DNA of 64,000 nt from an uncultured Candidatus Saccharibacteria bacterium. Its GTDB lineage: Bacteria; Patescibacteriota; Minisyncoccia; Portnoybacterales; UBA2143. The DNA lies in contig CAYPQZ010000006.1 in NCBI GenBank assembly GCA_964413015.1, forward strand, positions 7,070-71,069. Reading direction: 5' to 3'. Positions 10,317-52,663 of this stretch are shown piece after piece. Within the stretch, counting starts at the first letter, position 1; every line of letters begins with the position of its first letter. Below the pieces are notes generated by a model, which had not been told where the DNA came from, did no database searches, and was given only the letters and a program-made list of their open reading frames with translations. The position numbers and the translations under genes were made by a program.

Positions 10317-10380
10317 GATAAGAACAGTCTTTAAAATAACGCCTTTGTGCTCAAGGGACATCATTTTAAGGACTGTCCTT
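10317..10380 (+). repeat. family-A ~62-nt hairpin repeat copy A1
   Basis: gataagaacagtctttaaaataacgcctttgtgctcaagggacatcattttaaggactgtcctt. Confidence 0.75.
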
Positions 10381-10411
10381 TAACTGCTCTAAAAGTCAGT
10401 ATCCGAAAAAC

Positions 10412-11128
10412 ATGCTTATTGAATTGAAAAATATTACCAAAGATTACGTAGATGAGGAGATAACTACCCGGGCTTTGCGCGGGGTTTCTTTTGGCATCAA
10501 CGAAGGTGAATTTGTGGCCGTTATGGGCTCTTCCGGCTCGGGTAAATCCACCTTGATGCACATTATCGGCTTTTTGGATAAAATGACCCAGGGCGAGTAC
10601 TTTTTTGACGGGGAGAATGCCAGCGATTTTGATGACCACAAACTGGCTGAAATTAGGAACCGGAAAATCGGCTTTGTTTTCCAGTCGTACAACCTTTTAG
10701 CCCGGACTTCGGTCTGGGACAATGTTTTACTGCCAACTCTTTACACACCCAGCTTAAACAAAAAGGAAACCGAAGAAAGAGCTCAGCATCTTTTAAAGAA
10801 ATTGGGCCTGATAGAAAGAACCAATCATCGGCCCAATCAGCTTTCCGGAGGCGAGCAGCAAAGGGTGGCGATTGCCCGGGCTTTAATTAACCAGCCGCGC
10901 TTAATTCTGGCGGATGAGCCGACCGGGAACCTGGACAGCAAATCAGGCCAGGAAGTCATGGAAGTTTTGCAGGATTTGAATGAAGAGGGAAATACCATTT
11001 TAATGGTGACCCACGAGAAATACGTGGCTGAATGCGCCCGCCGGATTTTGAATATGAAAGACGGTCTGATTGTCAGCGATTACCAGGTAGCCCACCAGCA
11101 TTTGGCTAAAAACGGATTGAAGAAGTAA
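10412..11128 (+). CDS. ABC transporter ATP-binding protein (MacB/LolD/YknY-type)
   Basis: Walker A GSSGSGKST, signature LSGGEQQRVAIARAL, Walker B ILADEPTGNLD. Confidence 0.85.
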   Translation: MLIELKNITKDYVDEEITTRALRGVSFGINEGEFVAVMGSSGSGKSTLMHIIGFLDKMTQGEYFFDGENASDFDDHKLAEIRNRKIGFVFQSYNLLARTSVWDNVLLPTLYTPSLNKKETEERAQHLLKKLGLIERTNHRPNQLSGGEQQRVAIARALINQPRLILADEPTGNLDSKSGQEVMEVLQDLNEEGNTILMVTHEKYVAECARRILNMKDGLIVSDYQVAHQHLAKNGLKK

Positions 11129-11195
11129 GGTTATGTGAAGATGAGTTAAAGACAGTTCAAAAATTGTTATTAAAAGCCATTAAAGTCATGGAAAC

Positions 11196-11300
11196 TTGTC
11201 AAAATTTAAGGAGTCGTCCTTTCCCTCCAGAGGCGGGCAGGCGGACACGCCCTTTGCCTTCGGCAAAGGGACGTGATCCTCAATGACAATCCTTAAATTT
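11196..11300 (-). repeat. family-B repeat copy B3 (reverse)
   Basis: ttgtcaaaatttaaggagtcgtcctttccctccagaggcgggcaggcggacacgccctttgccttcggcaaagggacgtgatcctcaatgacaatccttaaattt. Confidence 0.75.
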
Positions 11301-11348
11301 CTTAAAGGCTGTTCTTGTCATTATGACAATCCCCAGATTTTAAAAGAA

Positions 11349-12581
11349 ATGTATTTCTTAAATACCCTTAAATTAACCTTTCAGAATCTAGCTTTGAAGA
11401 AAAGCCGTTCTTTTTTAACCATGCTGGGCATTATTATCGGCGTAGGTGCAGTTATTTCAATTATGGCGATTGGCGCTAGTGCCCAGGCCTTGCTTTTGGC
11501 GCAGGTTAACGCCATGGGGACTAATTTAATCGGCATTTTGCCGGGCGCCTCCGATGAAATGGGCCCGCCCGCAGCCGTATTCGGCATAGAAGTAACCACT
11601 TTGAAATATGAAGACGCCTTAACTTTGGCAAAACTTCCCCATGTCTTAGCGGTCAATCCGTATATCACCGGGCAGGGAACCTTTAGCTATTTTAACCGGG
11701 CGGAAAACTATAACTATTCAGGAGTCGGGGCTGATTATCCTAATGTTGAAGACGCTTCAGTGGAGTTGGGGCGTTTTTTTAGACAGGATGAAGTTGACGG
11801 TTTGGACAGAGTAGTTGTTTTGGGAAGTGAAGTTAATGAGAAGTTTTTTGGAGAAGATAATCCAATAGGCAAGAGGATTAAGATAAATCAGGTGAGTTTT
11901 AAAGTTATCGGGGTAATGGAGCAAAGAGGCGTAGTTACTTTCCAGAATCAGGACGAACAGGTTTTTGTTCCAGTCAAAACCGCCCAGAAAATACTTTTGG
12001 GCGTTGACCATTTGGCTTTTATTCGTGCCAAAGTTGACCAGAGTGAAAACATTCCTGCAGTCATCAGCCGGATTAAAGACACTCTTCGTTTCCGGCATCA
12101 TATTAAAGATCCCAGAAAAGATGATTTTTCTGTCAGGAGTACCGAGCAGGCCTTGGATATTTTAGGCAGTATTACCCAGGCCTTGAAATTGTTTTTAGCC
12201 GCCGTAGCGGCTATTTCTTTGATTGTCGGCGGCATTGGGATTATGAACATTATGTTCGTAGTGGTTAATGAACGGACCCGGGAAATTGGCCTGCGCAAGG
12301 CCATAGGCGCTAAAAGAAAAGACATTTTAACCCAGTTTTTAATTGAAAGCGCCACCATGACTTTAATTGGGGGAATCATCGGAATTATTTTAGGAATTTT
12401 AATCTCTTTAATTGTTTCAATCGGCGTAAACTATTTCGGCTATGATTGGAAATTCATTATTACTCCTTTATCCGTTTTTGTTTCCACTTTAATGGCGGTC
12501 AGTGTTGGTCTGGCTTTTGGTTTATGGCCAGCTAATCGGGCTTCTAAATTGAATTCAATTGAGGCCTTGCGATACGAGTGA
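11349..12581 (+). CDS. ABC transporter permease (FtsX/MacB-type)
   Basis: The listed ORF begins at 11283 inside repeat B3. ATG 11349 (MYFLNTLKLTFQNLALKKSRSFLTMLGIIIG) matches the canonical MacB-permease N-terminus. MacB periplasmic domain plus FtsX C-terminal TMs. Confidence 0.8.
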   Translation: MYFLNTLKLTFQNLALKKSRSFLTMLGIIIGVGAVISIMAIGASAQALLLAQVNAMGTNLIGILPGASDEMGPPAAVFGIEVTTLKYEDALTLAKLPHVLAVNPYITGQGTFSYFNRAENYNYSGVGADYPNVEDASVELGRFFRQDEVDGLDRVVVLGSEVNEKFFGEDNPIGKRIKINQVSFKVIGVMEQRGVVTFQNQDEQVFVPVKTAQKILLGVDHLAFIRAKVDQSENIPAVISRIKDTLRFRHHIKDPRKDDFSVRSTEQALDILGSITQALKLFLAAVAAISLIVGGIGIMNIMFVVVNERTREIGLRKAIGAKRKDILTQFLIESATMTLIGGIIGIILGILISLIVSIGVNYFGYDWKFIITPLSVFVSTLMAVSVGLAFGLWPANRASKLNSIEALRYE

Positions 12582-12588
12582 TGTGTCT

Positions 12589-12660
12589 GTGTCGGCTTTC
12601 GCATAGCCGACTAGTAAGTCGGCTATGCGAAAGCCGACACACTATGCGAAAGCCGACACA
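12589..12660. repeat. family-C palindromic units GTGTCGGCT-TTCGCAT-AGCCGACAC, 2.5 tandem/inverted copies
   Basis: Seen directly between the two permease genes. A single copy also lies at 738-763. Confidence 0.7.
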
Positions 12661-12667
12661 TTAGATT

Positions 12668-13927
12668 ATGAATCCTCTTTCTATAATTAAACAATCTCTG
12701 ATTGCTTTAAAAGCCAATAAATTGCGGAGTTCTTTTTCTATTTTAGGAATTGTTATTGGCGTGGCCGCGGTGGTGATTATTCTTTCAATGGGACAGGGAT
12801 TGAAAGGGCTAGTTACCAATGAAATTGAAGCCTTTGGCCCGAATATTCTAGATATTGCCGTTAAAATTCCCGGTTCTGACCAGATTAGCACGGTTGTTTC
12901 AATGGTCCAAGGAGTTAAAATTACCACTCTGAAAGTCAAAGACGTTAAGGCCTTGCAAGACAAAGACCGCTTTCCGTATATTGAAGCTGTTAGCGGGCAG
13001 GCGATTGCCCAGGAATGGACTACTTACGGCGGAGAAGAAAAACTGTCTTTAATTTACGGATGCAGTCCTGATTATCCTTTAGTTATGAGAATGTCTAAAA
13101 TAGGCCAAGGGCGGTTTTTCACCCTAGGCGAAGATGACGGTTTGTCCAAAGTGGTGGTTTTAGGAAGCGGGATTGCCGAGGATTTCTTTAAAAAAGAAGA
13201 TCCTTTAGGGAAAAAAATAAAGGTCAAAGGTCAGAATTTCAAAGTGGTTGGAGTCTTTGAACCGCAGGGCGGAGCGATCTTTGGCGGGATTGACATTAAC
13301 GACTTTTTATACATTCCCTTACAAACCGCCCTAAAGGAATTTTTAGGGATTGACTATTTATCGGAAATAGTGGTGACGATTGCTGACGAAAAATACTCGG
13401 CGCAGGCGATTGAGGAAATCTCCCGGATGCTCCGAAAACATCACAATATCCAGAATCCGGCCAAAGACGATTTCCAGATTACAACCATGGAAGAGATTCT
13501 GGAACAGGTCAATGAAATCAGCGTTATTCTAAACCTCTTGCTGGGATTTTTAGCCGCCATTTCCTTGTTAGTTGGCGGCATTGGGATTATGAATATTATG
13601 CTGGTTTCAGTGAGCGAGCGGACTCGGGAAGTCGGTTTGCGCAAATCATTGGGAGCGACCCAGCGGGATATTCTTTGGCAATTTTTGATTGAGAGCTTGG
13701 TAATTACCAGCTTAGGCGGCTTTATCGGAATTTTCTTTGGAATCGTTGTTTCCTTAATGGTTGGATTCGGAGTCCAGTATCAGGGGTTAAACTGGCCTTT
13801 GACCATTTCCTGGCTGGCGGTAATTGTTGCTTTTTTGGTATCAATGGCCATCGGGCTGATTTTCGGCATTTACCCGGCCCGCAAGGCCTCCAAACTCAAC
13901 CCAATAGAAGCCATGCGGAAGGAGTAG
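12668..13927 (+). CDS. ABC transporter permease (second FtsX/MacB-type)
   Basis: Paralogous to 11349-12581: ...KLRSSFSILGIVIGVAAVV..., C-terminal FtsX TMs. Confidence 0.8.
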   Translation: MNPLSIIKQSLIALKANKLRSSFSILGIVIGVAAVVIILSMGQGLKGLVTNEIEAFGPNILDIAVKIPGSDQISTVVSMVQGVKITTLKVKDVKALQDKDRFPYIEAVSGQAIAQEWTTYGGEEKLSLIYGCSPDYPLVMRMSKIGQGRFFTLGEDDGLSKVVVLGSGIAEDFFKKEDPLGKKIKVKGQNFKVVGVFEPQGGAIFGGIDINDFLYIPLQTALKEFLGIDYLSEIVVTIADEKYSAQAIEEISRMLRKHHNIQNPAKDDFQITTMEEILEQVNEISVILNLLLGFLAAISLLVGGIGIMNIMLVSVSERTREVGLRKSLGATQRDILWQFLIESLVITSLGGFIGIFFGIVVSLMVGFGVQYQGLNWPLTISWLAVIVAFLVSMAIGLIFGIYPARKASKLNPIEAMRKE

Positions 13928-14033
13928 ACAAAAAGGGGAAGAATGTGTAAAATTTAGATAGGATACATAGAGGGCAGTTAAAAAATTTAAGGATTGTCAT
14001 TTAATGCTTAGCTGTGTCCTTTAAACTAAACAT

Positions 14034-15998
14034 ATGTCAACACAAATATATTTTATTCTATCAGCTTCGGTTATTGCTCTTGTCTTTGCCTCAATCCTGG
14101 CTTGGCGGATTAAAAAGCAAGCGGTTGTTTCTAAAAAAGCCGGTCAGATAAGCCAAGTAATCAGAGAAGGGGCGATGACTTTTTTAAATCGGGAATACCG
14201 GATTCTGTTCGTTTTTGTGGTTGTAATTACCGGACTCCTTTACTATTTTCTTAATCCTAAAACAGCGATTGCTTTTGTTGCCGGAGCTTTTTTAAGCGCT
14301 TTGGCCGGACAGATTGGAATGCGGGTGGCGGTTTTGGCCAATATCCGGACTGCGGAAAAACTGAATCAGGATTTTAAATCCGGACTAAACGTCGCCTTTA
14401 ACAGCGGCAGTGTAATGGCGATGAGCGTGGTTGGCTTGGGTCTTTTAGGAGTTACTGCTCTTTACCTAATTTTTAAAGACCCGGTCATTATTTACGGCTT
14501 TGGGTTTGGCGCTTCTTCAGTAGCGTTGTTTGCCCGGGTAGGCGGCGGCATTTATACCAAAGCGGCTGACGTGGGAGCGGATTTAGTCGGCAAAGTAGAG
14601 CAGGGAATTCCTGAAGATGACCCTCGTAATCCGGCCACCATTGCCGACAATGTCGGCGACAATGTCGGTGATGTAGCCGGCATGGGAGCGGATTTGTTCG
14701 AAAGCTACGTGGATAGCATTATCGCCGCTATGGTAATCGGCTCAATTGTAGCTGTTGGAGAACGAGGGATTTTACTGCCTTTAGTTTTAGCCGGTGCCGG
14801 CATTTTAGTAAGTTTAATCAGCAATCTTTTTGTAAAACTGGGTTCAGTCCAGTCCGGTTCAGGTCATAAAGCTTTAAACCGGGGCATCTGGGCGGCTACC
14901 CTTTTAATGGCAGTCAGCGCCTTTGGGCTGATTAAGTATCTTGGTTTTGGAATTAATATTTTTTACGCCTTTTTATCTGGACTTTTAGCCGGCTTAATTA
15001 TTGGCCTGGCGACCGAATATTTTACTTCCGACAAATATTCTTTGACTCAACGGGTTGCTAAAGCGGCCCAAACCGGAGCCGGAACCAATATCATTGCCGG
15101 ATTTGCTTTGGGGCTTTTAAGCACGGCGATTCCGGTTTTGGCAATTTCAGCGGTCATTTTCTTGGCTTACCAATGGAGCCAGTTGTTCGGAATTGCTATT
15201 GCGGCAGTCGGCATGCTTTCCACCTTGGGAATGACTCTAGCGGCCGATACTTTTGGCCCGGTAGTGGATAATGCGGCCGGAATTGCCGAGATGTCCGAAA
15301 TGGGCGAGAACACCAGGAAAAGAGCCGAGGATTTGGACGCAGTTGGCAACACTACGGCTGCGATTGGCAAGGGCTTTGCTATTGGGGCGGCCGCTTTAAC
15401 GGCTTTAGTTTTAATGGTTAGCTACGGGCAGGCGGTTAATTTGCCTTTTATTGATATTTTGAACTACCGGGTGATTATCGGGCTTTTCTTGGGCGGATTA
15501 ATGCCTTTCCTGTTTTCTTCTTTTGCTTTGCAGGCGGTTGGCCGGGCGGCCATGTCTATGGTTAAAGAAGTCCGCCGCCAGTTCAGGACAATCAAGGGAA
15601 TTATGCAGGGCAAGGCCGAGCCGGATTACAAGAAGTGTGTGGATATAAGTACACGGGCGGCTTTGAAAGAAATGATTTTGCCGAGCGTTTTGTGCATTTT
15701 GGCGCCGGTTTTAGTCGGGTTCCTTTTAGGTCCGGCCGCTTTAGCCGGTTTGTTGGCTGGTTCTATTGTGGCTGGGTTTTTGTTAGCTATTACTATGTCT
15801 AATTCCGGCGGGATTTGGGATAACGCTAAAAAATATATTGAAGCAGGTAATTTGGACGGCAAGGGTTCGGAAACGCATAAAGCGGCTGTAGTCGGGGATA
15901 CGGTCGGCGACCCCTTCAAAGATACCGCCGGTCCTTCATTAAATATTCTGTTGAAATTAATGGCGATAGTCGCTTTGATAATCGCCCCGTTATTATAG
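14034..15998 (+). CDS. hppA: K+-insensitive/H+(Na+)-translocating membrane pyrophosphatase
   Basis: [29 protein letters not shown], about 15 TM segments. Confidence 0.9.
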
Positions 15999-16017
15999 AA
16001 GATTTGTTCATCCCCTC

Positions 16018-16046
16018 TTGACAGCTATTTGTTATGGGTATATACT
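16018..16046 (+). promoter_or_regulatory. sigma70-like promoter candidate (TTGACA, 17-nt spacer, TATACT) upstream of the DUF5320/NifX-like genes
   Basis: Read directly from sequence; it lies about 80 nt upstream of ATG 16129. Confidence 0.4.
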
Positions 16047-16128
16047 CATAAAGAGTATTACTAAAAACAGATGGCTGTTTCCTTTTAAAAGTCGCGGCTG
16101 TCTGGTAAAATAGAAAGGAGAATTAATT

Positions 16129-16401
16129 ATGCCTAATTTTAATGGAACAGGTCCTCGGGGACAAGGTCCAATGACTGGACGGGGAATGGGTAATTGCGCG
16201 CCGAATGGACAAACTCGGACGCCCGGTTACGGCCGCGGTTTTGGCCGTGGTCTTGGCTTTGGACGTGGCTGGGGATGGCCTGGCTATCGGGCACCCAGCG
16301 CCAAGGAAGAAAAGGAAATGTTGAATGAAGACCTCCAGGGGTTGAAGCATGAAATGGAAGGGGTGCAGTCCCGCCTTGAGGAGCTGAAAAATAAAAAGTA
16401 A
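16129..16401 (+). CDS. DUF5320-family small Gly/Arg-rich protein
   Basis: MPNFNGTGPRGQGPMTGRGMGNCAPNG...GYGRGFGRGLGFGRGWG with a C-terminal coiled-coil. This family classically sits beside NifX-like genes. Confidence 0.6.
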   Translation: MPNFNGTGPRGQGPMTGRGMGNCAPNGQTRTPGYGRGFGRGLGFGRGWGWPGYRAPSAKEEKEMLNEDLQGLKHEMEGVQSRLEELKNKK

Positions 16402-16409
16402 ATAACAAT

Positions 16410-16826
16410 ATGAAGATTTGTTTAAGTGTGAGTTCGCCTAGCTTAGATTCTTTAATAGATCCGAGGTTCGGACGAGCGCCCTATTTTCTTATCACTAATG
16501 AAAGAGGGGAAAAGGTGGAGACGATTCAGAATACCGGAGTGGATGCCATGGGAGGAGCCGGCGTTACGGCCGCCCAATTGGTTGTTTCTGCCGGCGCTCA
16601 AGTAGTCATTACTGGAAATCTCGGTCCGCGGGCTTTCGATGTTTTAGAAGCATCTGGGATAAAGATAATTGTTGGCATTTCCGGAATTTCGGCTAAAGAG
16701 ACCTTGGAAAAGTATCAGAAAGGCGATTTAGAAGAAATTGCCCGGCCGAGCGTGTCCGACCACTTTGGCGTAGGCCGGAGATTTGGCGGCGGCGGCCAAG
16801 GCAGAAGACAGGGCCAAGGCAGATAA
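16410..16826 (+). CDS. NifX/NifB-family (dinitrogenase FeMo-cofactor-binding fold) protein
   Basis: DPRFGRAPYFLI...GAQVVITGNLGPRAFDVLEASGIKI; Gly/Arg-rich tail. Confidence 0.75.
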   Translation: MKICLSVSSPSLDSLIDPRFGRAPYFLITNERGEKVETIQNTGVDAMGGAGVTAAQLVVSAGAQVVITGNLGPRAFDVLEASGIKIIVGISGISAKETLEKYQKGDLEEIARPSVSDHFGVGRRFGGGGQGRRQGQGR

Positions 16827-16866
16827 AGGACATTATTGAAAGTATTGAAGAACTGTCTTTAAGGAA

Positions 16867-16970
16867 ATTTAAGGATTGTCATTGAGAGTAGCGACCTTAC
16901 GCCGAAGGCGGAAAGTCGCGCTCGCCTGTCCGCCTCTGGAGGGAAAGGACGATTCCTTAAATTTTGACAA
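16867..16970 (+). repeat. family-B repeat copy B4
   Basis: aatttaaggattgtcattgagagtagcgaccttacgccgaaggcgg...ggaaaggacgattccttaaattttgacaa. Confidence 0.75.
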
Positions 16971-16982
16971 AGGCAACCCGAT

Positions 16983-17044
16983 AAGAACAGTCTTTAAAAT
17001 GACGCCCTTGTGCTCAAGGGACATCATTTTAAGGACTGTCCTTA
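16983..17044 (+). repeat. family-A hairpin copy A2
   Basis: aagaacagtctttaaaatgacgcccttgtgctcaagggacatcattttaaggactgtcctt. Confidence 0.75.
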
Positions 17045-17069
17045 TCGGAGGATTACCCTCTATGTACAT

Positions 17070-18308
17070 ATGAACCAAGTCTTTCAAAAAGGCCGACGAG
17101 CTACCATAATCTCCGCTTTGTTAACTGTCCTCTTGGCGGTAATCAAAGGAATTGTCGGACTTATTTCCGGAAGCGTTGTTTTGTTAGGCGACGCGGTGCA
17201 CAGTGCGGCTGATTCGCTTTCTAGCTTTGCCGCCTGGTTTGGCCTTAAAATTTCACAAAAAAAGCCCACCCAGAAGTTTTCTTACGGGTATTACAAGGCG
17301 GAAAATCTGACCGCTTTTTTGATTTCCGGTCTGATTATTCTGGCCGGCTTGCTGATTGCCAGGGAAAGCGTTGCCAAGTTCACGGTGGTTTCCCAGTTGA
17401 ATATCCCTTTGATTGCCGTGGGAGCGGCTGTGGTTGACGCTTTGGTTATGTTCACCATCGGCTCTTATGAAATGAAAATCGGCCGTAAAATAAATTCGCA
17501 GAGCTTAATTGCCGATGGCCGGGAATCGCGCCTGCATCTGCTTTCTTCGTCGTTGGTTTTAATCGGCTTACTGGCCGGCTGGATGAAAATCCCGTATTTA
17601 GAAGGAATTATGGGTTTGTTGATTTCGCTTTTTATTTTCCAGGCCGGCTTTAGCTCGGCTAAAGATTCGGTTTTTGCTTTAATGGATGTTTCTCCGGAAA
17701 AAGAAAAAGAAGACCGGGTTAAGAAAGTTTTAGGCAATATTCCCGGGGTTAGAAGTTTTGAAGGATTGAAATTAAGAAAATCCGGCCCCCTTATTTTCGG
17801 CGAAGTTAAAGTAAACGTTGGCCGGAGTTTAGACGTTAAAAAAGTCCAGGAAATCTCGGAGAAAATTGAACAGGAGATTAAAAAGAAAGTTAAATCAATC
17901 GATTCTTTCACAGTAATGGCCTCTTCTTTTAAGGCCGAAAAACAGAAAATCTGTCTGCCGATTGAAGAAGATAAAGGGCTGGATTCCTTAATGTTCAGCC
18001 ATTTTGGACGGGCTAAAAAGTTCATCTTTATCAATTTGGAAAAGAGCCAAATTAAGGATTATTACGTCAAAGACAACCCCTACCAAGGAAAAGAAGTTCG
18101 GGCCGGATTGAATACCGCTTTGCTGGTGGTTAAGGAAAAAGTTGATTCAGTAATTACCTGGGAAATTGGGCCAATTTCTCTGCATACTTTGAGAGACGAT
18201 CTAATTGAAGTTTATTCAGCTTCCGGCGGTTCGGTTAAGGAAATAGCTAAAAAATTTGCTCAGCAGAGTTTAAAACCCTTAAAAGAGCCGACTAAAGAAA
18301 AATTATGA
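17070..18308 (+). CDS. cation diffusion facilitator (CDF) transporter with a C-terminal NifX/NifB-like domain
   Basis: The listed ORF starts at 17010 inside repeat A2; ATG 17070 is likely. 6 TM with a CDF signature (HSAADSLSS...). The C-terminal ~110 aa (KICLPIEEDKGLDSLMFSHFGRAKKFIFINL...) resemble 16410-16826. Confidence 0.7.
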   Translation: MNQVFQKGRRATIISALLTVLLAVIKGIVGLISGSVVLLGDAVHSAADSLSSFAAWFGLKISQKKPTQKFSYGYYKAENLTAFLISGLIILAGLLIARESVAKFTVVSQLNIPLIAVGAAVVDALVMFTIGSYEMKIGRKINSQSLIADGRESRLHLLSSSLVLIGLLAGWMKIPYLEGIMGLLISLFIFQAGFSSAKDSVFALMDVSPEKEKEDRVKKVLGNIPGVRSFEGLKLRKSGPLIFGEVKVNVGRSLDVKKVQEISEKIEQEIKKKVKSIDSFTVMASSFKAEKQKICLPIEEDKGLDSLMFSHFGRAKKFIFINLEKSQIKDYYVKDNPYQGKEVRAGLNTALLVVKEKVDSVITWEIGPISLHTLRDDLIEVYSASGGSVKEIAKKFAQQSLKPLKEPTKEKL

Positions 18309-19947: not shown

Positions 19948-19951
19948 TTTT

Positions 19952-20551: not shown

Positions 20552-21407
20552 ATTAGTGATTGCTTCCGGAAAAGGCGGGGTCGGCAAGTCCATGCTAACT
20601 TCGGCTTTGGCGATGCTTTACAGCCAAAAAAAGAAGATAATTGCAGTGGACGCTGATGTAGACGCGCCTAATCTGGCGGTTTGGCTGAACCAATTGGATG
20701 AAAAAAATGTCCAGTTTTCCAAGAAAATCTCTACTTCTTTGAAGGCAATCATTGACGAGAACAAATGCAATGGCTGCGGCCAGTGTGTTGATAAGTGTGT
20801 TTTTAGCGCTTTGAAAATTAAGAATCACAAGGCCAAAGTAAATCCTTTTTTATGCGAAGGATGCGGCGTTTGCCAAATTGTTTGTCCGCAGAAAGCGGTT
20901 GAATTAAGGCCGGTGGATAACGGCCAAATTAAGATGGTGAACACCGATTACGGCTTTCCTTTGTTTTCCGGCCAGCTTTTGCCGGGCGAAACCGGCTCGG
21001 GCAAAGTGGTGGCTGAAATTAAAAAGGCGGCCCGGGAAAAAGGCGATTGCGATTTAATGCTGATTGATTCCTCGCCGGGCACAGGTTGTCCGGTCATCGC
21101 TTCCTTTCAGGATGCTGATTTGGCGGTTTTAATCACTGAACCGACGCCTTCCGGATTAAGCGATTTGAAAAGAGTTCTGAAAGTGGTTGAGCATTTCCAG
21201 ATTCCTTTTAAGGTGGTGGTTAATAAATGGGATATTAATCCTTCAATAACCGGAGAAATAGAGGAAGAGTTTAAAAATGAGTTTTTAGGAAAAATTTCCT
21301 ATGACCAGGGTATTTTCAAGGCAATTGCCAATTTAACGCCTATTTTAAAAACCAAATTAAAGGCCAAACAGGAAATTAAAGCAATTTTCAAGAAATTATA
21401 CAGTTGA
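20532..21407 (+). CDS. MinD/Mrp-family P-loop ATPase with two 4Fe-4S ferredoxin motifs (second paralogue)
   Basis: SGKGGVGKS, CNGCGQCVDKCVFSAL, CEGCGVCQIVCPQKAV. The stop codon lies inside REP copy 4. Confidence 0.75.
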   Translation: MKNKNFRLVIASGKGGVGKSMLTSALAMLYSQKKKIIAVDADVDAPNLAVWLNQLDEKNVQFSKKISTSLKAIIDENKCNGCGQCVDKCVFSALKIKNHKAKVNPFLCEGCGVCQIVCPQKAVELRPVDNGQIKMVNTDYGFPLFSGQLLPGETGSGKVVAEIKKAAREKGDCDLMLIDSSPGTGCPVIASFQDADLAVLITEPTPSGLSDLKRVLKVVEHFQIPFKVVVNKWDINPSITGEIEEEFKNEFLGKISYDQGIFKAIANLTPILKTKLKAKQEIKAIFKKLYS

Positions 21408-21424
21408 GACGTCCAACGTCTCAA
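21404..21424. repeat. REP-like palindrome copy 4 (TTGAGACGTCCAACGTCTCAA)
   Basis: Seen directly, 17 kb from the transposase gene. Confidence 0.8.
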
Positions 21425-25362: not shown

Positions 25363-27902
25363 TGAAGAAAATGCCTCTAAAATTTATTGTTTTATTTTTA
25401 CTCATCGGCCTTAACTGGGCCGGACTTTCGGCTATTGGCGAAACAATGGCTTATTTTAGTGATATTGAAAATACTTCAAATAATGTTTTTAAAACAGGAA
25501 TTTTAGATATGACTATCAGGTCAGGCCAGAATAATTTTGTCCCTGATGCGGAAAATATGATGCCCGGAGACCAGGTTAACAGGGATATTTATGTAGGAAA
25601 AACTGCAGGCAGTATGCCTTTGAAACACAGGGTTAGTTATGAATTTATTGACGGCAATCCAGAATTATGCAGCCAATTGGATTTAAAAATTTGGTATGAC
25701 CATTTTACTTGTAAAGGTTCTTATAAAGATTGTAGAGATATGCGCCTGAAATATAATGATTCTTTAGTTTCTTTAAATAATTTAGTGGATTCTAATTTTA
25801 TAATTCCCCATCCAGATGACCAATTTGATACTGATGACAGCGATGGAACAGAGCAATGGTTTTATTACAGCATTATTGTGCCAAATGATTTAAATGATTC
25901 TTTTCAAGGCGAGGTTTGTAAGTTCAAATTTGTTTATGAAGCCTGGCAGGATAATTTTGATAATTATGGAGATGGGGGCTTTACAGATGTTGAAGAAATA
26001 GAAAGCACTATAAAAATAGGTTATAGTAATCCGCCGGTGGTTTTGAATGAATTCTTGCCTAATGCCGGAACTTACCCGGAATTTGTTGAGATTTATAATA
26101 AAACCGGTTCACCAATTGACCTTCAAGGATACCAAATTAGAGCCAATGGCCACCCGATTCCTATAAATCCTGCTACTACTAGTCGTTTTTCAGAAGGCAA
26201 TACAAACATTTCTCCTTATAGCTGGCTGGTTGTCGCTAGTCCTAAACCAAATAATCCTGGTTGGAACAGTTCTATATGGGATAATTTCTTAAATGATAGT
26301 TCAGGCACTATAGAGCTTTACAATAAACATGAAGTTATAATGGATTCTTATACTTATGGAAATCCTGACCACAATGTTAATAACACTCCGGGCTGGACTA
26401 ATGATTTAGTAGGATATTGGCCTTTTGATAAAAATAGTGGTGATACTGCTTATGATAAGAGCGGAAATAATAATGACGGTACTATTCATGGAGCTACTTG
26501 GGCTACCGGCGTGGTTAACTCCGGTTTGACTTTTGGTGGTTTCAGTGACTATGTCGATTGTGGCAATGATAGTACTCTTGACTTTACGAATACAGATAAT
26601 TTCACTTTAAGTCTTTGGGCTAAGAAGGAATCCAATCCCTCAGAGGGTAATGTAATGGGATTGGCTGGTAAAAATATTAAATATGCTATTGATTACTACT
26701 TTAAACAAGATAAAATAAGAGCCGGCATTAGAAACGAAGATGATGGACAATATATGATTACTACCCAACCTTCAAATGAACTTTTAGATTGGAATCATAT
26801 TGTTTTTGTTTATGAGAGTGAACAGTCGGATGGTATGAAGCTTTATGTGAACGGTGGCCTGAAATCCTCTCGAACTACCGAAGGATTGAGCGGCTTCAGT
26901 AACCCAAGCCGACACTTTGAAATAAGTGGTCCTGCTACCGGAGGAAACATTGAAAGATTTAATGGTACTATAGATGAAGTTAAACTTTATAATCGAGCAT
27001 TAAGTGATGATGAGGTATTAGAGAACTATAACAAGGTGGTATCTGCAAGCGGGAATACTGTGCCAGTAGATAAATCTTACGCTCGTATACCTGATGGTAG
27101 CAGTAATTGGGTGGATCCGGTGCCTACTCCTGGCGGGCCTAATTCTATGGACAATGATGCACAATCAATGCCAAACACAGAGCAAAATTTTGAAACAAAC
27201 AGCGATTTGCCGGAAAATGATAATAATTCTCAAACAGATAGTCAGAACAGCGAAGGCGGGAACGAAGAAACAGAAGAGCAGATAATCAATGAAGAAGAAG
27301 ATAAAAACGGAGAGGATCAAGGGTGCGAAGAAGATAATGAAGAAATCGGGATAAAGGAGAATGACGAAGATAATAAGGATGGGGATGACAGCCAGGGCGA
27401 GGGGAGCGAGGAAGAAAACGGGGATGATAATGATGAAAATCAGGGGAATAAAGCAGCTGACGAAGAAGAAGATGATGAATCTAATGAAGAAACAGAAGAA
27501 GGCTTCTCTAATGACGAAGAGGATAATAATAGAGAAGAAGCAAATAATGCTTCTGAAGAAGATGCTGATTTTGAAGAAAACAATTCTTCAAACGAAGAGG
27601 AAGAAAAAGATTCTGATAATCAATCTAAAGAGAAAAACGAATCAGATAATTCCAGCGAAGAATCTAATAACAATCAGGAGCAAGAAGAAAATTCAGATAG
27701 CAACAATACAGACCAAGAAACTGGCACAGACCAAGAAACTGGCGAAGAAACAGGCAATTCTTCAGAGAACAGCAGTTCAGATAATAGCAGCCAAGAAATA
27801 AAAGAGAATAGCGGTGAGGAAAGTAATTCCGGCAATCAAAATCAAGAAGAACCAGATGATAATTCGGGAAGCGAAGATTCAAATCAAGATAACGATGAAT
27901 AA
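25362..27902 (+). CDS. large secreted protein: SipW-cognate signal, lamin-tail-like domain, LamG/ConA-like domain and a ~260-aa polyacidic D/E/N/S-rich tail
   Basis: Signal ...GETMAYFSDIENTSNNVFKTGILD. LTD-like VVLNEFLPNAGTYPEFVEIYNKTGSPIDLQGYQIR. LamG-like LVGYWPFDKNSGDTAYDKSGNNNDGTIHG...DEVKLYNRALSDDEV. Tail residues 590-846 are more than 60% D/E/N/S. Confidence 0.6.
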   Translation: MKKMPLKFIVLFLLIGLNWAGLSAIGETMAYFSDIENTSNNVFKTGILDMTIRSGQNNFVPDAENMMPGDQVNRDIYVGKTAGSMPLKHRVSYEFIDGNPELCSQLDLKIWYDHFTCKGSYKDCRDMRLKYNDSLVSLNNLVDSNFIIPHPDDQFDTDDSDGTEQWFYYSIIVPNDLNDSFQGEVCKFKFVYEAWQDNFDNYGDGGFTDVEEIESTIKIGYSNPPVVLNEFLPNAGTYPEFVEIYNKTGSPIDLQGYQIRANGHPIPINPATTSRFSEGNTNISPYSWLVVASPKPNNPGWNSSIWDNFLNDSSGTIELYNKHEVIMDSYTYGNPDHNVNNTPGWTNDLVGYWPFDKNSGDTAYDKSGNNNDGTIHGATWATGVVNSGLTFGGFSDYVDCGNDSTLDFTNTDNFTLSLWAKKESNPSEGNVMGLAGKNIKYAIDYYFKQDKIRAGIRNEDDGQYMITTQPSNELLDWNHIVFVYESEQSDGMKLYVNGGLKSSRTTEGLSGFSNPSRHFEISGPATGGNIERFNGTIDEVKLYNRALSDDEVLENYNKVVSASGNTVPVDKSYARIPDGSSNWVDPVPTPGGPNSMDNDAQSMPNTEQNFETNSDLPENDNNSQTDSQNSEGGNEETEEQIINEEEDKNGEDQGCEEDNEEIGIKENDEDNKDGDDSQGEGSEEENGDDNDENQGNKAADEEEDDESNEETEEGFSNDEEDNNREEANNASEEDADFEENNSSNEEEEKDSDNQSKEKNESDNSSEESNNNQEQEENSDSNNTDQETGTDQETGEETGNSSENSSSDNSSQEIKENSGEESNSGNQNQEEPDDNSGSEDSNQDNDE

Positions 27903-38053: not shown

Positions 38054-38221
38054 AAGCTTGACAAGGATTCAATAAAATATTAAGCTGACTATACAGCTAT
38101 AGACAATAGGCAATTCCGCCAGAGGCGGAGTAAGACCTATCGAGGCGAATATTTCTTGCAGTAAGCTTGTCGAACTGTTTGTCTATGGTTTTCCATAGAT
38201 TTTTTAATTATCTAAACTGAT

Positions 38222-38283
38222 AAGAACAGTCTTTAAAATGACGCCCTTGTGCTCAAGGGACATCATTTTAAGGACTGTCCTTT
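38222..38283 (+). repeat. family-A hairpin copy A3
   Basis: Identical over 62 nt to A2/A4. Confidence 0.75.
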
Positions 38284-38335
38284 AATCGAGTTAACGTCCC
38301 CCTTGAAGACTATTTTTTAATTAAACACAATTGGC

Positions 38336-42449: not shown

Positions 42450-42452
42450 CTC

Positions 42453-44174: not shown

Positions 44175-44194
44175 AATAAAATTTTTAATTTTTA

Positions 44195-45496: not shown

Positions 45497-45586
45497 AAAG
45501 TTGATTTTTGTCAATTTTTTTGGTAATATTTAAAGATGCTAATTTGTATTTAAAAATTAAAAATTAAAAATTAAAAATTTTGATTT

Positions 45587-45658
45587 GGCCCTATCGTCTA
45601 GTGGCTAGGACGCCAGGTTCTCATCCTGGTAACAGGAGTTCGATTCTCCTTAGGGCTG
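45587..45658 (+). tRNA. tRNA-Glu (CTC)
   Basis: D-arm gtctagtggctaggac, anticodon stem ccagg/cctgg, loop ttctcat, T-loop ttcgatt. An (aaaatt)4 tandem run precedes it. Confidence 0.7.
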
Positions 45659-45678
45659 CGCGAAAGGAGGTGATAAAA

Positions 45679-45939
45679 ATGGCTGAGGAAAAATTAGTCG
45701 GGAAAATAACGCATTACTTTACTAATATCGGAGTAGGGGTTATTGAGATTACTGACAACGAGTTAAAAGTTGGCGATAAAATTCATGTAAAAGGGGCTAC
45801 CAGTGATTTTGAACAGGCGGTTGACTCAATGCAAATAGAGCATGAGAACGTAGAAGTGGCTAATAAAGGCGACGCGGTTGGCTTAAAAGTAGAACAGCAG
45901 GTCAGAGAAGGCGATGAAGTCTTTAAAACAGCAGATTAA
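45679..45939 (+). CDS. small hypothetical protein (beta-barrel-like, 86 aa)
   Basis: The listed ORF start at 45580 overlaps tRNA-Glu. ATG 45679 MAEEKLVGKITHYF... has an AGGAGG RBS upstream. Confidence 0.4.
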   Translation: MAEEKLVGKITHYFTNIGVGVIEITDNELKVGDKIHVKGATSDFEQAVDSMQIEHENVEVANKGDAVGLKVEQQVREGDEVFKTAD

Positions 45940-45951
45940 TTAAGATTAAAA

Positions 45952-46869
45952 ATGGAAGAAGGAAATAAAGGAATCAGGTCCTTGATACTTTTTTCAGGTG
46001 GCTTAGATTCTATTTTATTAGTTAAAATTTTAAGAGAACAAGGCGTAGATATAGCTGGCATAAATTTTGTCAGTTATTTTTTTAATGAAGATTTAGCAGT
46101 CAAAGCGGCTAAAGATTTAAAACTTAAGTTAAAAATATTTGATTTTTCGGAGGAACATTTGGCAGTAGTCAAAAAACCCCGTTACGGCTACGGCAAAGCG
46201 ATAAATCCTTGCATTGATTGCCACCTTTTAATGCTTAAAAAGGCCAAGGGAATAATGGTCAAAGAGAAATTTGACCTGGTGGCTACCGGCGAGGTGCTGG
46301 GGGAAAGGCCGATGTCCCAAAACAGGCAGGCCTTAGAGCTAATTGAAGAAAAATCAGGCCTAAAAGGAGCTTTGCTACGTCCTCTGTCGGCTAAATTATT
46401 AGAACCAACCATAGCTGAGGAGAGGGGATTAATTGATAGAAATCGTCTTCTTGATATCTCCGGCCGGAGCCGAAAAAAACAAATGTCTTTGGCTAAGAAA
46501 TGGGGGATCCAGGAATACCCCAGTCCGGCTGGAGGGTGCTGTTTGACTGATTTGCAATTTGCCAAGCGTTTTAAAAAAATGCTTAAATATTGGCCTGATT
46601 GCCGAGGCAAAGATGTCCAATTGTTAAAACTAGGCCGCCATTTTTGGCAGGATAATAATCTGCTTGTGATCGGCCGCAATCAGCAGGATAATAAGGAAAT
46701 TAAAAAAACTTCTCTTAAGAGTGATGTTTTAATAGAACCAAAGGCCTTTCCCGGCCCGAGTATTTTAATTAGAGGGGAAAAAAGCGTTTCAGAACAGAGC
46801 TTAATTAAAGCTAAAGAGTTAATGTTTAGGTATTCAAAGAAAGGACGTTATTTAAAGGACAGTCTTTAA
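45952..46869 (+). CDS. PP-loop ATPase, ThiI-like tRNA sulfurtransferase family (no THUMP domain seen)
   Basis: LFSGGLDS PP-loop; CIDCHLL; ATGEVLGERPMSQNRQALELIE...LLRPL resembles the ThiI catalytic domain. Confidence 0.45.
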   Translation: MEEGNKGIRSLILFSGGLDSILLVKILREQGVDIAGINFVSYFFNEDLAVKAAKDLKLKLKIFDFSEEHLAVVKKPRYGYGKAINPCIDCHLLMLKKAKGIMVKEKFDLVATGEVLGERPMSQNRQALELIEEKSGLKGALLRPLSAKLLEPTIAEERGLIDRNRLLDISGRSRKKQMSLAKKWGIQEYPSPAGGCCLTDLQFAKRFKKMLKYWPDCRGKDVQLLKLGRHFWQDNNLLVIGRNQQDNKEIKKTSLKSDVLIEPKAFPGPSILIRGEKSVSEQSLIKAKELMFRYSKKGRYLKDSL

Positions 46870-46945
46870 AAATTAAGGGAATTTAAGGATTGTCCTTATC
46901 ATCAGCGTATCCCAAGGGACATCATTTTAAAAACTGTCCTTAAAT
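46854..46945 (+). repeat. degenerate family-A/B composite repeat
   Basis: aaggacagtctttaaaaattaagggaatttaaggattgtcctt...cccaagggacatcattttaaaaactgtcctt. Confidence 0.5.
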
Positions 46946-47720: not shown

Positions 47721-47744
47721 GCCTTTTTGTTGTATGATAAAAGC

Positions 47745-50378: not shown

Positions 50379-50388
50379 AATAATCATT

Positions 50389-51414
50389 ATGGAATATTTA
50401 ATTATTTTACTTTTAATAATGATTGTCGGGCTGTTGCTTTTTTTGTTGTTTCGTAAAAAAACAGACAAACCGGAAGGCGAATCCTTGATGATGCTTCAAC
50501 AGCAGGTTAACCAATTAAGCCAGGTTCTGGATAACAAGCTGGCCGAGTCGGCTAAGTCGGTTCAGTCACAGTTTAAAGAAAGCAGTAAGATTATCCGGAA
50601 CGTGACTGAGAAATTAACTAATCTGGATAATACCAACAAGCAAGTAATGGGTTTTGCCGAGCAATTGCAGTCATTGGAAAATATTTTAACTAGTCCCAAA
50701 CAGAGAGGAATTTTAGGAGAATACTATTTGGAAACGGTTTTAAAAAATGTTCTGCCGCCCAAGGCATATCAAATGCAGTATGAATTTGACGACGGTGAAA
50801 TAGTTGACGCGGTTATTTTTATAAAGGACAAAATTATCCCGATTGACTCAAAATTCTCTTTAGAGAATTACAACCGGATTGCCCGAGAAGAAAATGGAGA
50901 AAAGCGTCTAAAACTGGAAAGGCAGTTTAAGCTGGATTTAAAAAAACGAATTGACGAAACGGCCAAATACATCAAACCTAATAAAGGGACTATGGATTTT
51001 GCTTTTATGTTTATTCCGGCTGAAGGAGTTTATTATGACCTATTGATTAATCAAGTGGGGACGGTTAAGATAGCCACCCGAGATTTGATAGAATACGCTT
51101 TTAAAGACAAGCATGTGATAATTGTTTCGCCGACTTCTTTTCACGCCTATTTACAGACCGTCTTACAGGGTTTGCGGGCTTTGCAAATTGAAGAATCGGC
51201 TAAGGGAATTCGCAAGGCGGTTGGCAAGCTGGAAAAGCATTTGAGAAGCTATGAAGAGTATTTAAAAAAATTGGGCAATAACCTTGGAACTACGGTGAAT
51301 ATGTATAATTATGCGTATAGGGAGTTTGGCAAAATTGATAAAGACGCGGCTAAAATCACCGGCGAAAAACCGGAAACCGAGGTTAAAAAAATAGAAAAGC
51401 CGGTTATTGATTAA
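50389..51414 (+). CDS. rmuC: DNA recombination protein RmuC
   Basis: N-terminal TM, coiled-coil, RmuC C-terminal domain. ATG 50389 preferred. Confidence 0.75.
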   Translation: MEYLIILLLIMIVGLLLFLLFRKKTDKPEGESLMMLQQQVNQLSQVLDNKLAESAKSVQSQFKESSKIIRNVTEKLTNLDNTNKQVMGFAEQLQSLENILTSPKQRGILGEYYLETVLKNVLPPKAYQMQYEFDDGEIVDAVIFIKDKIIPIDSKFSLENYNRIAREENGEKRLKLERQFKLDLKKRIDETAKYIKPNKGTMDFAFMFIPAEGVYYDLLINQVGTVKIATRDLIEYAFKDKHVIIVSPTSFHAYLQTVLQGLRALQIEESAKGIRKAVGKLEKHLRSYEEYLKKLGNNLGTTVNMYNYAYREFGKIDKDAAKITGEKPETEVKKIEKPVID

Positions 51415-51427
51415 AGGATAAGCTGAT

Positions 51428-51489
51428 AAGAACAGTCTTTAAAATGACGCCCTTGTGCTCAAGGGACATCATTTTAAGGACTGTCTTTT
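51428..51489 (+). repeat. family-A hairpin copy A4
   Basis: aagaacagtctttaaaatgacgcccttgtgctcaagggacatcattttaaggactgtc. Confidence 0.75.
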
Positions 51490-51536
51490 TAAGTCCACTT
51501 GATTTTTGTTTTCGGATGAGTTAGGATAGGGGTATG

Positions 51537-51671
51537 CCCCGTAGAGAAATTTTGACTCATTCGCCTTAGGCGAATAAGTAAATATACGGGGATATATATT
51601 AAGTTAAGTTAATAAAAAAAGTATAATTTAAGAGTTTTGATATCTCAAAATGTCAAAGTTCTTCTACGGGG
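51537..51671 (+). repeat. family-D structured element copy 2, ending 1 nt before the rplU ATG
   Basis: ccccgtagagaaattttgac ... gtcaaagttcttctacgggg; internal ttcgcc-tta-ggcgaa hairpin; flanked by ggggtatg on both sides. Confidence 0.6.
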
Positions 51672-51672
51672 T

Positions 51673-51993
51673 ATGTTTGCGGTAATAAAAACCGGCGGGA
51701 AGCAGTATCTGGTTTCGCCGGGCGATAAAATTAAAATAGAAAAAATAGACGACCAGAAGGGCAAAGAAATAACCTTTGACCAAGTTTTATTAATGGATAA
51801 AAACAAGACCTTAAAAATAGGAGAGCCGTTGGTTAAAAGCGCTAAAGTCAAGGCAAAAGTTATCAAGCAAGATCGGGCTGAGAAAGTGGTTGTTTTCAAA
51901 TACAAGCCTAAGAAACGCTACCAAAAAAAAATGGGCCATCGACAGCCCTATACTGAAGTAGAAATATTAAAAATTTTATCTTCGGCCAAGTAA
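51673..51993 (+). CDS. rplU: 50S ribosomal protein L21
   Basis: MFAVIKTGGKQYLVSPGDKIKIEKI. Confidence 0.85.
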   Translation: MFAVIKTGGKQYLVSPGDKIKIEKIDDQKGKEITFDQVLLMDKNKTLKIGEPLVKSAKVKAKVIKQDRAEKVVVFKYKPKKRYQKKMGHRQPYTEVEILKILSSAK

Positions 51994-52575
51994 AGCGTTA
52001 GTCAAAGTATTTTCATCAGCGTATTCCAGATCGGAACCAGTTGACAAGCCGCGTCCCAAGCGGCTCGTTTTAATTTTCAGCGGTTTGAGCAGATGTTCAA
52101 TATACAAAGCAGTGGTATCTCCTTCAGTAGTCGGGCTTAAAGCAAAAACAATTTCTTTAACTGGCGGCTGATTTTTTTTGACTCTTTCAATCAACTGCTT
52201 GATTCTTAATTTTTCCGGGTCAATGCCGTCGGCCGGAGAAATCAATCCGCCCAGGACATGATAAAGTCCGTGATACTGTTTGGTTTTTTCCAGGGGCAGA
52301 ATATTTAAAATATTTTCTACCAGGCAGATTGTCTGTTGGTCTCTTCTGGGTTGCCGGCAGATAGAACAGAGCTGATTGTCTTTGCTGGCCAGATTAAAAC
52401 ACTGCGGGCAAAGATGAATTTCGGTTTTAGAACTTTTAATCAAATGAGCTAATTCATCCAAGTTTTTCTGGTCCTGGTTTATTAAATAGAAAACCAGCCG
52501 GGTGGCAGCTCGGGGTCCAATGTCAGGCAGTTTGCTTAACTGGTTGATTAAGTTTTGAATTGATTCAGGGAACAT
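51976..52575 (-). CDS. recR: recombination protein RecR
   Basis: HhH (LSKLPDIGPRAATRL), C4 zinc finger (CPQCFNL...CSIC), Toprim. ATG 52575 preferred; the listed 5' extension runs into repeat A5. Confidence 0.85.
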   Translation of the reverse strand: MFPESIQNLINQLSKLPDIGPRAATRLVFYLINQDQKNLDELAHLIKSSKTEIHLCPQCFNLASKDNQLCSICRQPRRDQQTICLVENILNILPLEKTKQYHGLYHVLGGLISPADGIDPEKLRIKQLIERVKKNQPPVKEIVFALSPTTEGDTTALYIEHLLKPLKIKTSRLGRGLSTGSDLEYADENTLTNALLGRR

Positions 52576-52601
52576 ACCAATTTTGACAATGACAAACAGA
52601 T

Positions 52602-52663
52602 AAGAACAGTCTTTAAAATGACACCCTTGTCCCAAGGGACATTATTTTAAGGACTGTCCTTAT
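52602..52663 (+). repeat. family-A hairpin copy A5 (shorter loop variant)
   Basis: taagaacagtctttaaaatgacacccttgtcccaagggacattattttaaggactgtcctt. Confidence 0.7.

Follow-up and report, generated by a model that had tools for sequence, protein, structure and literature searches.

Mosaic palindromic repeats between the genes of a candidate phyla radiation bacterium, probably a recently amplified non-autonomous family

The DNA considered here is a 64-kb stretch of contig CAYPQZ010000006.1 (“the window”). It is 90% coding, and five of its intergenic gaps hold nearly identical copies of a hairpin-forming element, referred to here as family A, beside genes that include rplJ, rplU, dnaB and recR. 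The closest named homologues of the DnaB and MltG proteins belong to the Parcubacteria group or Candidatus Portnoybacteria, with those of a protein resembling the REP-associated tyrosine transposases (RAYT; REP, repetitive extragenic palindrome) included they belong to Parcubacteria, Portnoybacteria and Patescibacteria, and the gene content is like that of the candidate phyla radiation (CPR). In all, ~81 kb of the host genome and ~100 kb of its relatives were examined. The window sequence also occurs in contig LQBG01000056.1 (GCA_002030005.1) and was assembled, 99.99%–100% identical, from several other samples. The repeats therefore did not arise as an error of a single assembly. The NCBI label of GCA_002030005.1, “Firmicutes bacterium ML8_F2”, looks wrong given the Parcubacteria-like homologues and CPR-like genes. 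The comparisons set out below indicate that family A is a new family of a known kind of selfish repeat, and not a conserved terminator or regulatory signal.

How alike are the copies, and how far does the unit extend? When the two arms were searched with up to three mismatches, the left arm was found at five sites (10320, 16983, 38222, 51428 and 52602), all on the + strand, and the right arm at those five sites plus 46916 (+) and 8286 (−); dinucleotide shuffles gave 0.00 expected matches. By BLAST against the copy at 16979-17046, which serves as the reference, identity is 100% for 38219-38282 and 51425-51485, 96.9% for 10317-10380 and 93.9% for 52599-52663. An earlier note, made from the sequence alone, had described five near-identical copies of a ~62-nt palindrome, always intergenic and all in one orientation. 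The copies, their coordinates, the palindrome and the intergenic placement are borne out; the length is not, the true unit being slightly longer. Aligned with their flanks, all five copies have a left extension, yAAnCnGATAAG, in common; the unit begins ~11 nt before the start given in the earlier note and runs from this extension to ...GACTGTCCTT. It is a near-palindrome of ~60–66 nt. All five intact copies are fully intergenic, for which the chance expectation is ~0.098^5, or roughly 1e-5.

A covariance model scores the five intact copies at 80–86 bits and finds decayed relatives at 8283-8335 (30 bits), 46882-46944 (24 bits) and 56255-56296 (20 bits). The three degenerate sites proposed earlier are thereby recovered, except that the segment 56259-56275 is not itself an A copy; it is a solo 13-nt palindrome at the far end of a second element, family B, described below. 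More decayed relatives lie at 11279-11319, 32622-32662, 58345-58383, 30384-30432 and 16845-16886. The window thus holds five intact and at least eight decayed copies, all intergenic, and A and B elements account for most of its intergenic gaps longer than 150 nt (Table 1). Several short-read contigs begin or end inside A or B, as would be expected of multi-copy repeats.

Table 1. Positions of family A, B and C elements in the window.
Feature	Position	Strand	Remarks
Family A copy 1	10317-10383	+	intact, 96.9% to reference, 79.7 bits; directly after B; 31 nt upstream of ABC-ATPase gene
Family A copy 2, reference	16979-17046	+	82.4 bits; after B copy; 23 nt upstream of cation-efflux gene
Family A copy 3, solo	38219-38285	+	85.7 bits; between conserved rplJ leader/attenuator and rplJ start codon
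Family A copy 4, solo	51425-51491	+	79.7 bits; 10 nt past rmuC stop, upstream of rplU
Family A copy 5	52598-52665	+	83.1 bits; between dnaB (−) and recR (−), orientation opposite to transcription
Degenerate A	8283-8335	−	29.9 bits; adjoins B(−)
Decayed half copy of A (AAGAACAGTCCTTAAAATTACAT...)	30384-30432	+	contains stop codon of upstream gene
Decayed A-like hairpin (AGGAACAGTCCTT...GGGGCTGTTCCT)	58345-58383	+	after dnaK
Family B	10203-10307	+	TTGACAA end toward A copy 1
Solo 13-nt palindrome (16848-16860), then family B	16848-16970	+	TTGACAA end toward A copy 2
13-nt palindrome (56258-70), B and short A remnant (TCTTTAAATTTTCTTCTTAAAGA)	56258-56405	+	between hsp20 and dnaK
Family B	8360-8465	−	
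Family B and flanking 13-mer-like palindrome (11304-11316)	11195-11316	−	
A end remnant (GTTGTTCTTATC), short B and 13-mer-like palindrome (32647-59)	32550-32659	−	rpmE/rpsB intergenic region
Degenerate composite: 13-mer, B left end, A right arm, internal deletion	46854-46945	+	NFACT-lgt junction
B-tail fragment and spacer (AATTTTGACAATGACAAACA)	52575-52597	+	next to copy 5
Family C (TTGAGACGTTGGACGTCTCAA)	3385-3405		exact flanking pair with 4055-4075
Family C (TTGAGACGTTGGACGTCTCAA)	4055-4075		exact flanking pair with 3385-3405
Family C (TTGAGACGTTGGACGTCTCAA)	21404-21424		further copy

Syntenic loci from related genomes were obtained through their DnaB and MltG homologues. DnaB identity to the window is 96% for L027, 88% for L028 and L032 (the organism of L002) and 87% for L029 and L033. 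The gap between dnaB and recR is 105 nt with A in the window, versus 1 nt in L027, 0 in L028 and 12 nt in L029. At rplJ, the promoter, the leader and a hairpin with a T-run are found in all genomes compared, and A in the window only; in L033 the start codon follows 7 nt past the leader T-run, with no A. In L032, the position that A has in the window, between the leader and the gene, is taken by a different long palindrome (11150-11230, AGACGAATTTTTTTGAATCG...CGATTCAAAAAAATTGTCT). Palindromic insertions appear to have a hot spot at rplJ. The rmuC-rplU junction holds A in the window, a half copy in L027 and nothing in L028 and L029. Between hsp20 and dnaK, L027 and L029 have no element (gaps of 4 and 20 nt), L028 has a solo A, and the window has a 13-mer, B and an A remnant. 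Past the 3′ end of wzy, every genome has a conserved canonical terminator, and L028 alone has an additional A next to it. The B block between rpmE and rpsB in the window is absent from L032. Two further junctions are occupied more widely. After dnaK, L028 has an intact A, L029 has a variant palindrome whose arms are GAGGCCGTGCTTGAAAAC, L027 has a 13-mer with B, and the window has a decayed hairpin. At the NFACT-lgt junction, L002/L028 have the A and B composite intact; the composite in the window carries a deletion and faces the other way. Presence/absence differences of this kind between close relatives indicate a mobile repeat, a property at which the earlier note had only hinted when it spoke of shared insertion preferences. 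The composite elements that it also proposed are real, as described below.

No target-site duplication was found at ~20 A copies, nor at the filled and empty versions of the dnaB-recR, hsp20-dnaK, wzy and rplJ sites. By comparison, a control repeat with 20-nt inverted ends (29472-29602 and 51537-51671) shows an ATG/TATG duplication, and for 51537-51671 the TATG is seen against the empty L027 site. This control is a third repeat family in the window, a classical miniature inverted-repeat transposable element (MITE) of 131–135 nt with ends CCCCGTAGAGAAATTTTGAC / GTCAAAGTTCTTCTACGGGG. Both of its copies sit exactly at a start codon, one at a haloacid dehalogenase-type (HAD) hydrolase gene and one at rplU, and the GGGG end of the element recreates the ribosome-binding site. 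The true rplU start is 51673 (MFAVIKTGG), not that of the longer TTG open reading frame from 51637.

Family A is found in other genomes, albeit rarely. The strict pattern has no match in ~185,000 species genomes. In metagenomes it has two true loci, L002 and L003, whose host is ~79% identical in coding DNA; two of the four metagenome matches proved to be chance matches inside genes. A relaxed palindrome pattern yielded at least six copies in the GTDB Parcubacteria metagenome-assembled genome bin.79 and at least one on a Saccharibacteria-labelled contig; its other matches are unrelated hairpins. An alignment of 16 copies from 4–5 genomes reveals what is held constant. The outer 18 nt (AAGGACAGTCCTTAAAAT and its complement, holding the 13-nt palindrome AAGGACNGTCCTT) are invariant, and the 20–60 nt between these ends vary. 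The inner stem occurs as GACGCCC/GATGTCCC, TACGTCC, GACATCC or GACTTCC, and the center is often itself palindromic (GTGCAC, TTGCAA, CTTAAG) or consists of 29–48 nt of unrelated sequence. A compensatory change is seen in only one of 23 pairs. What is conserved is the sequence of the ends and not just their pairing, which fits recognition ends rather than an RNA stem. The invariant 18-nt ends and the short non-coding interior give A the terminal-inverted-repeat layout of a MITE. Many copies in other genomes are perfectly symmetric, and the AAnCnGATAAG flank is confined to the window copies, on one side; no flank is conserved in other genomes.

In bin.79, a single 13-mer is found at L023:5000 where paralogous contexts have the whole hairpin. 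It is a deletion scar, of the sort that slippage between near-identical 13-mers would leave. The bin.79 loci (L018, L023 and L026) contain tandem paralogues of ~575 amino acids, rich in cysteine (many CxxC), with an A hairpin or 13-nt scar 10–12 nt upstream of the start codon. A tie between A and these Cys-rich genes was considered and rejected: the tandem paralogues carried the hairpin along in the duplication, and no homologue lies near A in the window. Variant subfamilies with the 13-mer core GGCCGTGCC instead of GGACAGTCC and GAGGCCGTGCTTGAAAAC arms occur in L029 (6030-6110), L032 (3400-3650) and L027 (6260-6300), and include a ~300-nt mosaic block at the trpS junction of L032. An Rfam 15 scan of the window at gathering scores returned tRNAs only and no family for A; in E-value mode, A gave only sub-threshold matches to generic miRNA-precursor hairpins, which were judged meaningless. 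The family A sequence has no relevant match in viral contigs, plasmids, phages or the literature.

Taken together, these observations are best explained, with a probability of roughly 0.7, by family A being a recently amplified, non-autonomous palindromic repeat resembling REP sequences, bacterial interspersed mosaic elements (BIMEs) and MITEs. Several observations weigh against this reading. The evidence covers the ~81 kb of host genome and ~100 kb of relatives, and the genome and metagenome scans used strict patterns, so that copy counts are lower bounds. The after-dnaK and NFACT-lgt junctions hold a family member in every genome examined, which could reflect a useful hairpin that has been retained rather than repeated insertion. 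No mobilizing enzyme was identified. The sole transposase-like gene within reach (3412-4080) has another palindrome on its flanks, and ~180 kb of fetched loci, viral contigs, plasmids and phages yielded no autonomous element bounded by the ends of A (AAGGACAGTCCTTAAAAT...ATTTTAAGGACTGTCCTT).

Could the hairpins instead act in RNA, as factor-independent terminators, RNase III-type processing sites or 3′-end stabilizers of polycistronic transcripts? The earlier note had proposed a role as terminators or processing sites for copies such as those upstream of rplJ and rplU, and both strands of A do fold into very stable hairpins. The reference copy (16979-17046) folds at −37.2 kcal/mol on the + strand (z −10.6) and −42.2 kcal/mol on the − strand (z −12.0) relative to shuffles. 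The − strand hairpin is therefore ~5 kcal/mol more stable, as the earlier note expected, but the count of mismatches given there needs a small correction: its four A-C/C-A mismatches, three of them turning into G-U wobbles, are in fact two A·C mismatches, one U·G wobble and one bulged A on the + strand, and two G·U wobbles, one A·C mismatch and one bulge on the − strand. The idea that the − strand RNA is the relevant fold finds no support, since a related genome has the asymmetric subfamily turned the opposite way with respect to its genes, and perfect symmetry is seen in many copies elsewhere. In four of the five window copies, it is the worse-pairing strand that would be transcribed into the mRNA; L002/L003 have the opposite arrangement. 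The common + orientation of the five intact copies (chance 1/16) is real, but it is no general rule, because a related genome has an inverted composite. Replication-linked, strand-specific insertion was rejected as its cause, given the chance of 1/16 and the inversion of the asymmetric subfamily relative to syntenic genes in L002/L028.

The position of A copies between a gene end and the next gene start is what termination or processing would call for, but copies also lie within probable operons (membrane fusion protein-ABC ATPase-permease), between genes that abut in relatives (dnaB/recR, hsp20/dnaK) or between the rplJ leader and the start codon. Since dnaB and recR abut or lie no more than 12 nt apart in relatives, an efficient terminator there would cut off recR. 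Orthologous junctions in close relatives lack A altogether. A lenient scan does flag the inner GC stem followed by ATTTT as terminator-like on both strands; however, only this 6-bp inner stem passes, and its T-run is 4 nt long and buried in the stem. No U-tract follows the full hairpin on either strand, the next bases being TAACTG, ATCGGA, TAATCG, TTTAAG and ATAGTC. The after-dnaK junction, with a family member in four of four genomes just upstream of a conserved wzz promoter, speaks for an RNA function. Against this, 18 nt are invariant where an RNA stem would tolerate covariation, which is seen in 1 of 23 pairs, and the lineage has canonical terminators, such as the one at 62058-62090, beside which the A copy of L028 would be redundant. 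The identity of A as a canonical terminator was accordingly rejected: it has no U-tract, and genuine terminators of the normal type occur in the lineage. An RNA-level role as the explanation for the element is improbable, and a terminator or processing role of any kind is unproven and probably secondary; the proposal in the earlier note thus finds no footing in a repeat that lies inside operons and is dispensable in relatives.

Two conserved RNA features in the window are distinct from A. The terminator at 62058-62090 is a canonical bidirectional intrinsic terminator (AACCCCGAGCG...CGCCCGGGGTTTTTT) between convergent genes and is conserved in L028 and L029. The region upstream of rplJ (38056-38205) consists of a conserved promoter (CTTGACAA...TAAGCT), followed by a structured leader and a T-run hairpin, and L032 and L033 have all of these as well; the region is probably an attenuator of the L10-leader type, although Rfam does not detect it at gathering score.

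The organization of the 13-mer and of family B points again to a mosaic repeat. Each A arm holds the 13-nt palindrome AAGGACNGTCCTT, with the pattern AAG[G/A]AC[A/T]GTC[C/T]TT (6-1-6), which also occurs solo and always at the far end of family B. The two 13-mer ends of A are 12/13 identical as direct repeats. All six occurrences of the core GGACWGTCC in the window are intergenic. Two 13-mers overlap genes, at their last codons only, and the 3′ ends of genes at times extend into the element. Family B, likewise palindromic, has ends (AAATTTAAGGATTGTC / GACGAYTCCTTAAATTT) that are degenerate versions of the 13-mer, and two alternative GC-rich inner modules. The ...AAATTTTGACAA (TTGACAA) end of B is turned toward an A copy or remnant in every case, with three composites on the + strand (B then A: 10203-10380, 16865-17046 and 56274-56405) and three on the − strand (A then B: 8283-8465, 11146-11301 and 32550-32645). 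The earlier note had asked whether A trails B in one relative orientation, and it does. The architecture of the blocks is a mosaic: 13-mer, B, spacer, A. At dnaB-recR, the insertion comprises 11 nt of B tail and the spacer in addition to the A copy, which implies that a B-A junction was its source. The idea that the 13-mers are a duplicated palindromic target was rejected: every copy has A at the center of its left 13-mer and T at the center of its right one, so that the pair is a true inverted repeat rather than a direct duplication. A promoter carried by A or B was also rejected. The TTGACA box of B has no −10 box at 16–19 nt in either composite layout, the spacers from it to TAAAAT within A being 11 or 25 nt; native promoters of the clade have the form TTGACA-N18-TAAnnT. 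B also points away from genes as often as toward them.

The 13-mer raises the further possibility that a dimeric protein recognizes AAGGACNGTCCTT as duplex DNA (an operator, a nucleoid or segregation site, or an uptake signal) and that the hairpins are pairs of such sites. Its 6-1-6 symmetry, its 36 matches in the window versus 0.9 expected, its solo occurrence and presence at the far end of B, and the conservation across genomes of its sequence rather than of pairing would all suit a protein-binding site. The genes downstream, however, do not form a coherent regulon (ABC transporter, cation efflux, rplJ, rplU, recR, dnaK, dnaJ), the orthologous genes of relatives show no conservation of the sites, and the centers of paired 13-mers lie anywhere from 41 to 89 nt apart, without helical phasing. 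Unlike uptake sequences, the core is found in no gene body, and very few of the ~185,000 species genomes have the family. A binding-site function is therefore very improbable. Two specific identities were also rejected: the CIRCE/HrcA operator, suggested by copies near grpE-hsp20-dnaK-dnaJ, because there is no match to the CIRCE inverted repeat and the copies are missing in relatives; and an integron attC-like site, because A lacks the R″/R′ end motifs, lies between housekeeping genes and has many perfectly symmetric copies.

If A is a mobile repeat, what moves it? One candidate lies in the window itself. A Y1 transposase-like protein related to RAYT is encoded at 3412-4080 (Pfam Y1_Tnp, E 3.3e-7; NCBIfam REP_Tyr_transpos, 26 bits against a cutoff of 80), and A could be a REP doublet (REPIN) mobilized by it. 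An imperfect, bulged hairpin, a conserved 5′ extension, the lack of a duplication and a single orientation in the window are all traits of substrates of HUH/Y1 enzymes. In relatives, however, many copies are perfectly symmetric, and with respect to syntenic genes the asymmetric subfamily is found both ways round. A also has no GTAG-like conserved tetranucleotide at the foot of the hairpin. Moreover, in REPIN-RAYT systems the RAYT gene is flanked by the same palindrome that it mobilizes, and this linkage is absent for A: the RAYT-like gene is flanked on both sides by a 21-nt palindrome, TTGAGACGTTGGACGTCTCAA (family C), and its homologues in two other Parcubacteria (L030 and L031) are flanked by their own lineage-specific C-type palindromes, not by A. 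Mobilization of A by this gene is therefore quite unlikely.

The RAYT-like protein AVO34_01705, 222 amino acids long with the HUH motif NHYHF, belongs to a family of more than 4000 homologues, mostly in Patescibacteria. Its gene contains an in-frame copy of TTGAGACGTTGGACGTCTCAA with a flipped loop (3592-3612, encoding LRRPTS), and the L030 and L031 genes have the same layout, with their own palindromes and an internal copy at the same protein position. This cognate hairpin inside the coding sequence may be autoregulatory.

How does family A compare with repeat systems known from other bacteria? First, like the REP/BIME elements of enterobacteria, A is a short, imperfect, extragenic palindrome, often inside operons, that forms mosaic blocks with other motifs in a fixed relative orientation (here 13-mer, B, spacer, A), shows no target-site duplication and varies in presence between related genomes. 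The two differ in sequence, in stem length (~25–30 bp for A versus 12–15 bp for REP), in the lack of a GTAG-type 5′ tetranucleotide in A and in the CPR host. Second, A resembles the REPINs of Pseudomonas and others in being an extragenic doublet of inverted ~25-nt units forming one long hairpin, in the burst-like amplification of near-identical copies and in the presence of a RAYT-like gene in the genome; the difference is that this gene is flanked here by family C. Third, A shares with the Correia/NEMIS elements of Neisseria and other MITEs terminal inverted repeats of ~18–26 nt around a short, variable interior, co-transcription with neighbors as strong hairpins (for A, a predicted fold), presence/absence polymorphism between strains, hot-spot junctions and deletion derivatives. 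Correia elements, however, are 100–155 nt long, with a TA target duplication, integration host factor (IHF) sites and promoter boxes, and A shows no duplication in five filled/empty comparisons. Fourth, the symmetric A-tract, GC stem and T-tract between genes and the inverted motif pair recall bidirectional terminators and the paired DNA uptake sequences (DUS) of Neisseria or uptake signal sequences (USS) of Haemophilus, but the T-run of A is 4 nt within the stem, its motif never occurs inside genes and its copies are dispensable in relatives. A search of the literature, incomplete in coverage, found no description of REP-, RAYT- or MITE-type elements in CPR bacteria.

The behavior of the amplified, non-autonomous repeat proposed above can be outlined as follows. 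Gain and loss between relatives without a duplication, restriction to intergenic DNA and the anatomy of the repeat family are directly observed. New copies of A would be inserted where only a few nucleotides separate a stop codon from the start codon that follows, leaving no target-site duplication; together with the related palindrome B and solo 13-mers, they would build the mosaic blocks; and they would decay by internal deletion, probably through slippage between the 13-mer ends, to give half copies or 13-nt scars. The five window copies probably derive from one master copy in a recent burst, as suggested by the derived mismatches and left extension that they have in common. Movement would be in trans, via an enzyme encoded elsewhere. 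A duplication-free, hairpin-recognizing mechanism such as an HUH/Y1-type transposase would suit both the hairpin substrate and the missing duplication; this specific assignment is plausible but rather unlikely. Effects on transcripts of a hairpin of −37 to −42 kcal/mol would be a by-product and not the reason for the element; a secondary effect on the fate of the mRNA is possible, judging from the predicted fold. More speculatively, and with a low likelihood, the invariant 18-nt end might be the recognition site of a CPR-specific, trans-acting protein that builds and inverts the cassettes of 13-mer, B and A. Such a putative protein could be a duplication-free hairpin transposase or recombinase, or a DNA-binding factor. 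Given the opposite orientation of the NFACT-lgt block in two relatives, some cassettes might be invertible switches carrying the outward-facing TTGACA box of B.

Some features of the window stand apart from this account. A and B elements are concentrated in 8000-17100, where the GC content is 0.43–0.45 versus 0.37–0.40 elsewhere; the segment encodes a MacAB-like efflux system, an H+-PPase and cation efflux genes, and it may have been acquired. A low-complexity tandem repeat with a period of 9–21 nt, rich in Glu, Gly and Lys codons, lies at 28836-29074 inside the gene at 27814-29373.

What does family A mean for the genomes that carry it? First, neither the hairpin upstream of rplJ nor the one upstream of rplU should be taken for a conserved regulator of ribosomal protein genes or for a terminator; palindromic repeats of this kind are a likely source of misannotated “regulatory hairpins”. 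Second, the repeats differ between relatives whose DnaB proteins are 87%–96% identical, which makes them a main source of structural variation and of assembly breaks, and they can be used as strain markers. Third, the ends of family A are conserved across distant lineages, with no known partner enzyme. Finally, the usual picture of CPR bacteria is one of streamlined genomes whose intergenic spacers are tiny. In the window, the gaps longer than 150 nt are mostly filled by palindromic families, namely A, B, the MITE that targets start codons and the RAYT-linked hairpins. Such dense mosaic repeats with fast turnover are not what the streamlined genomes of CPR bacteria are known for.

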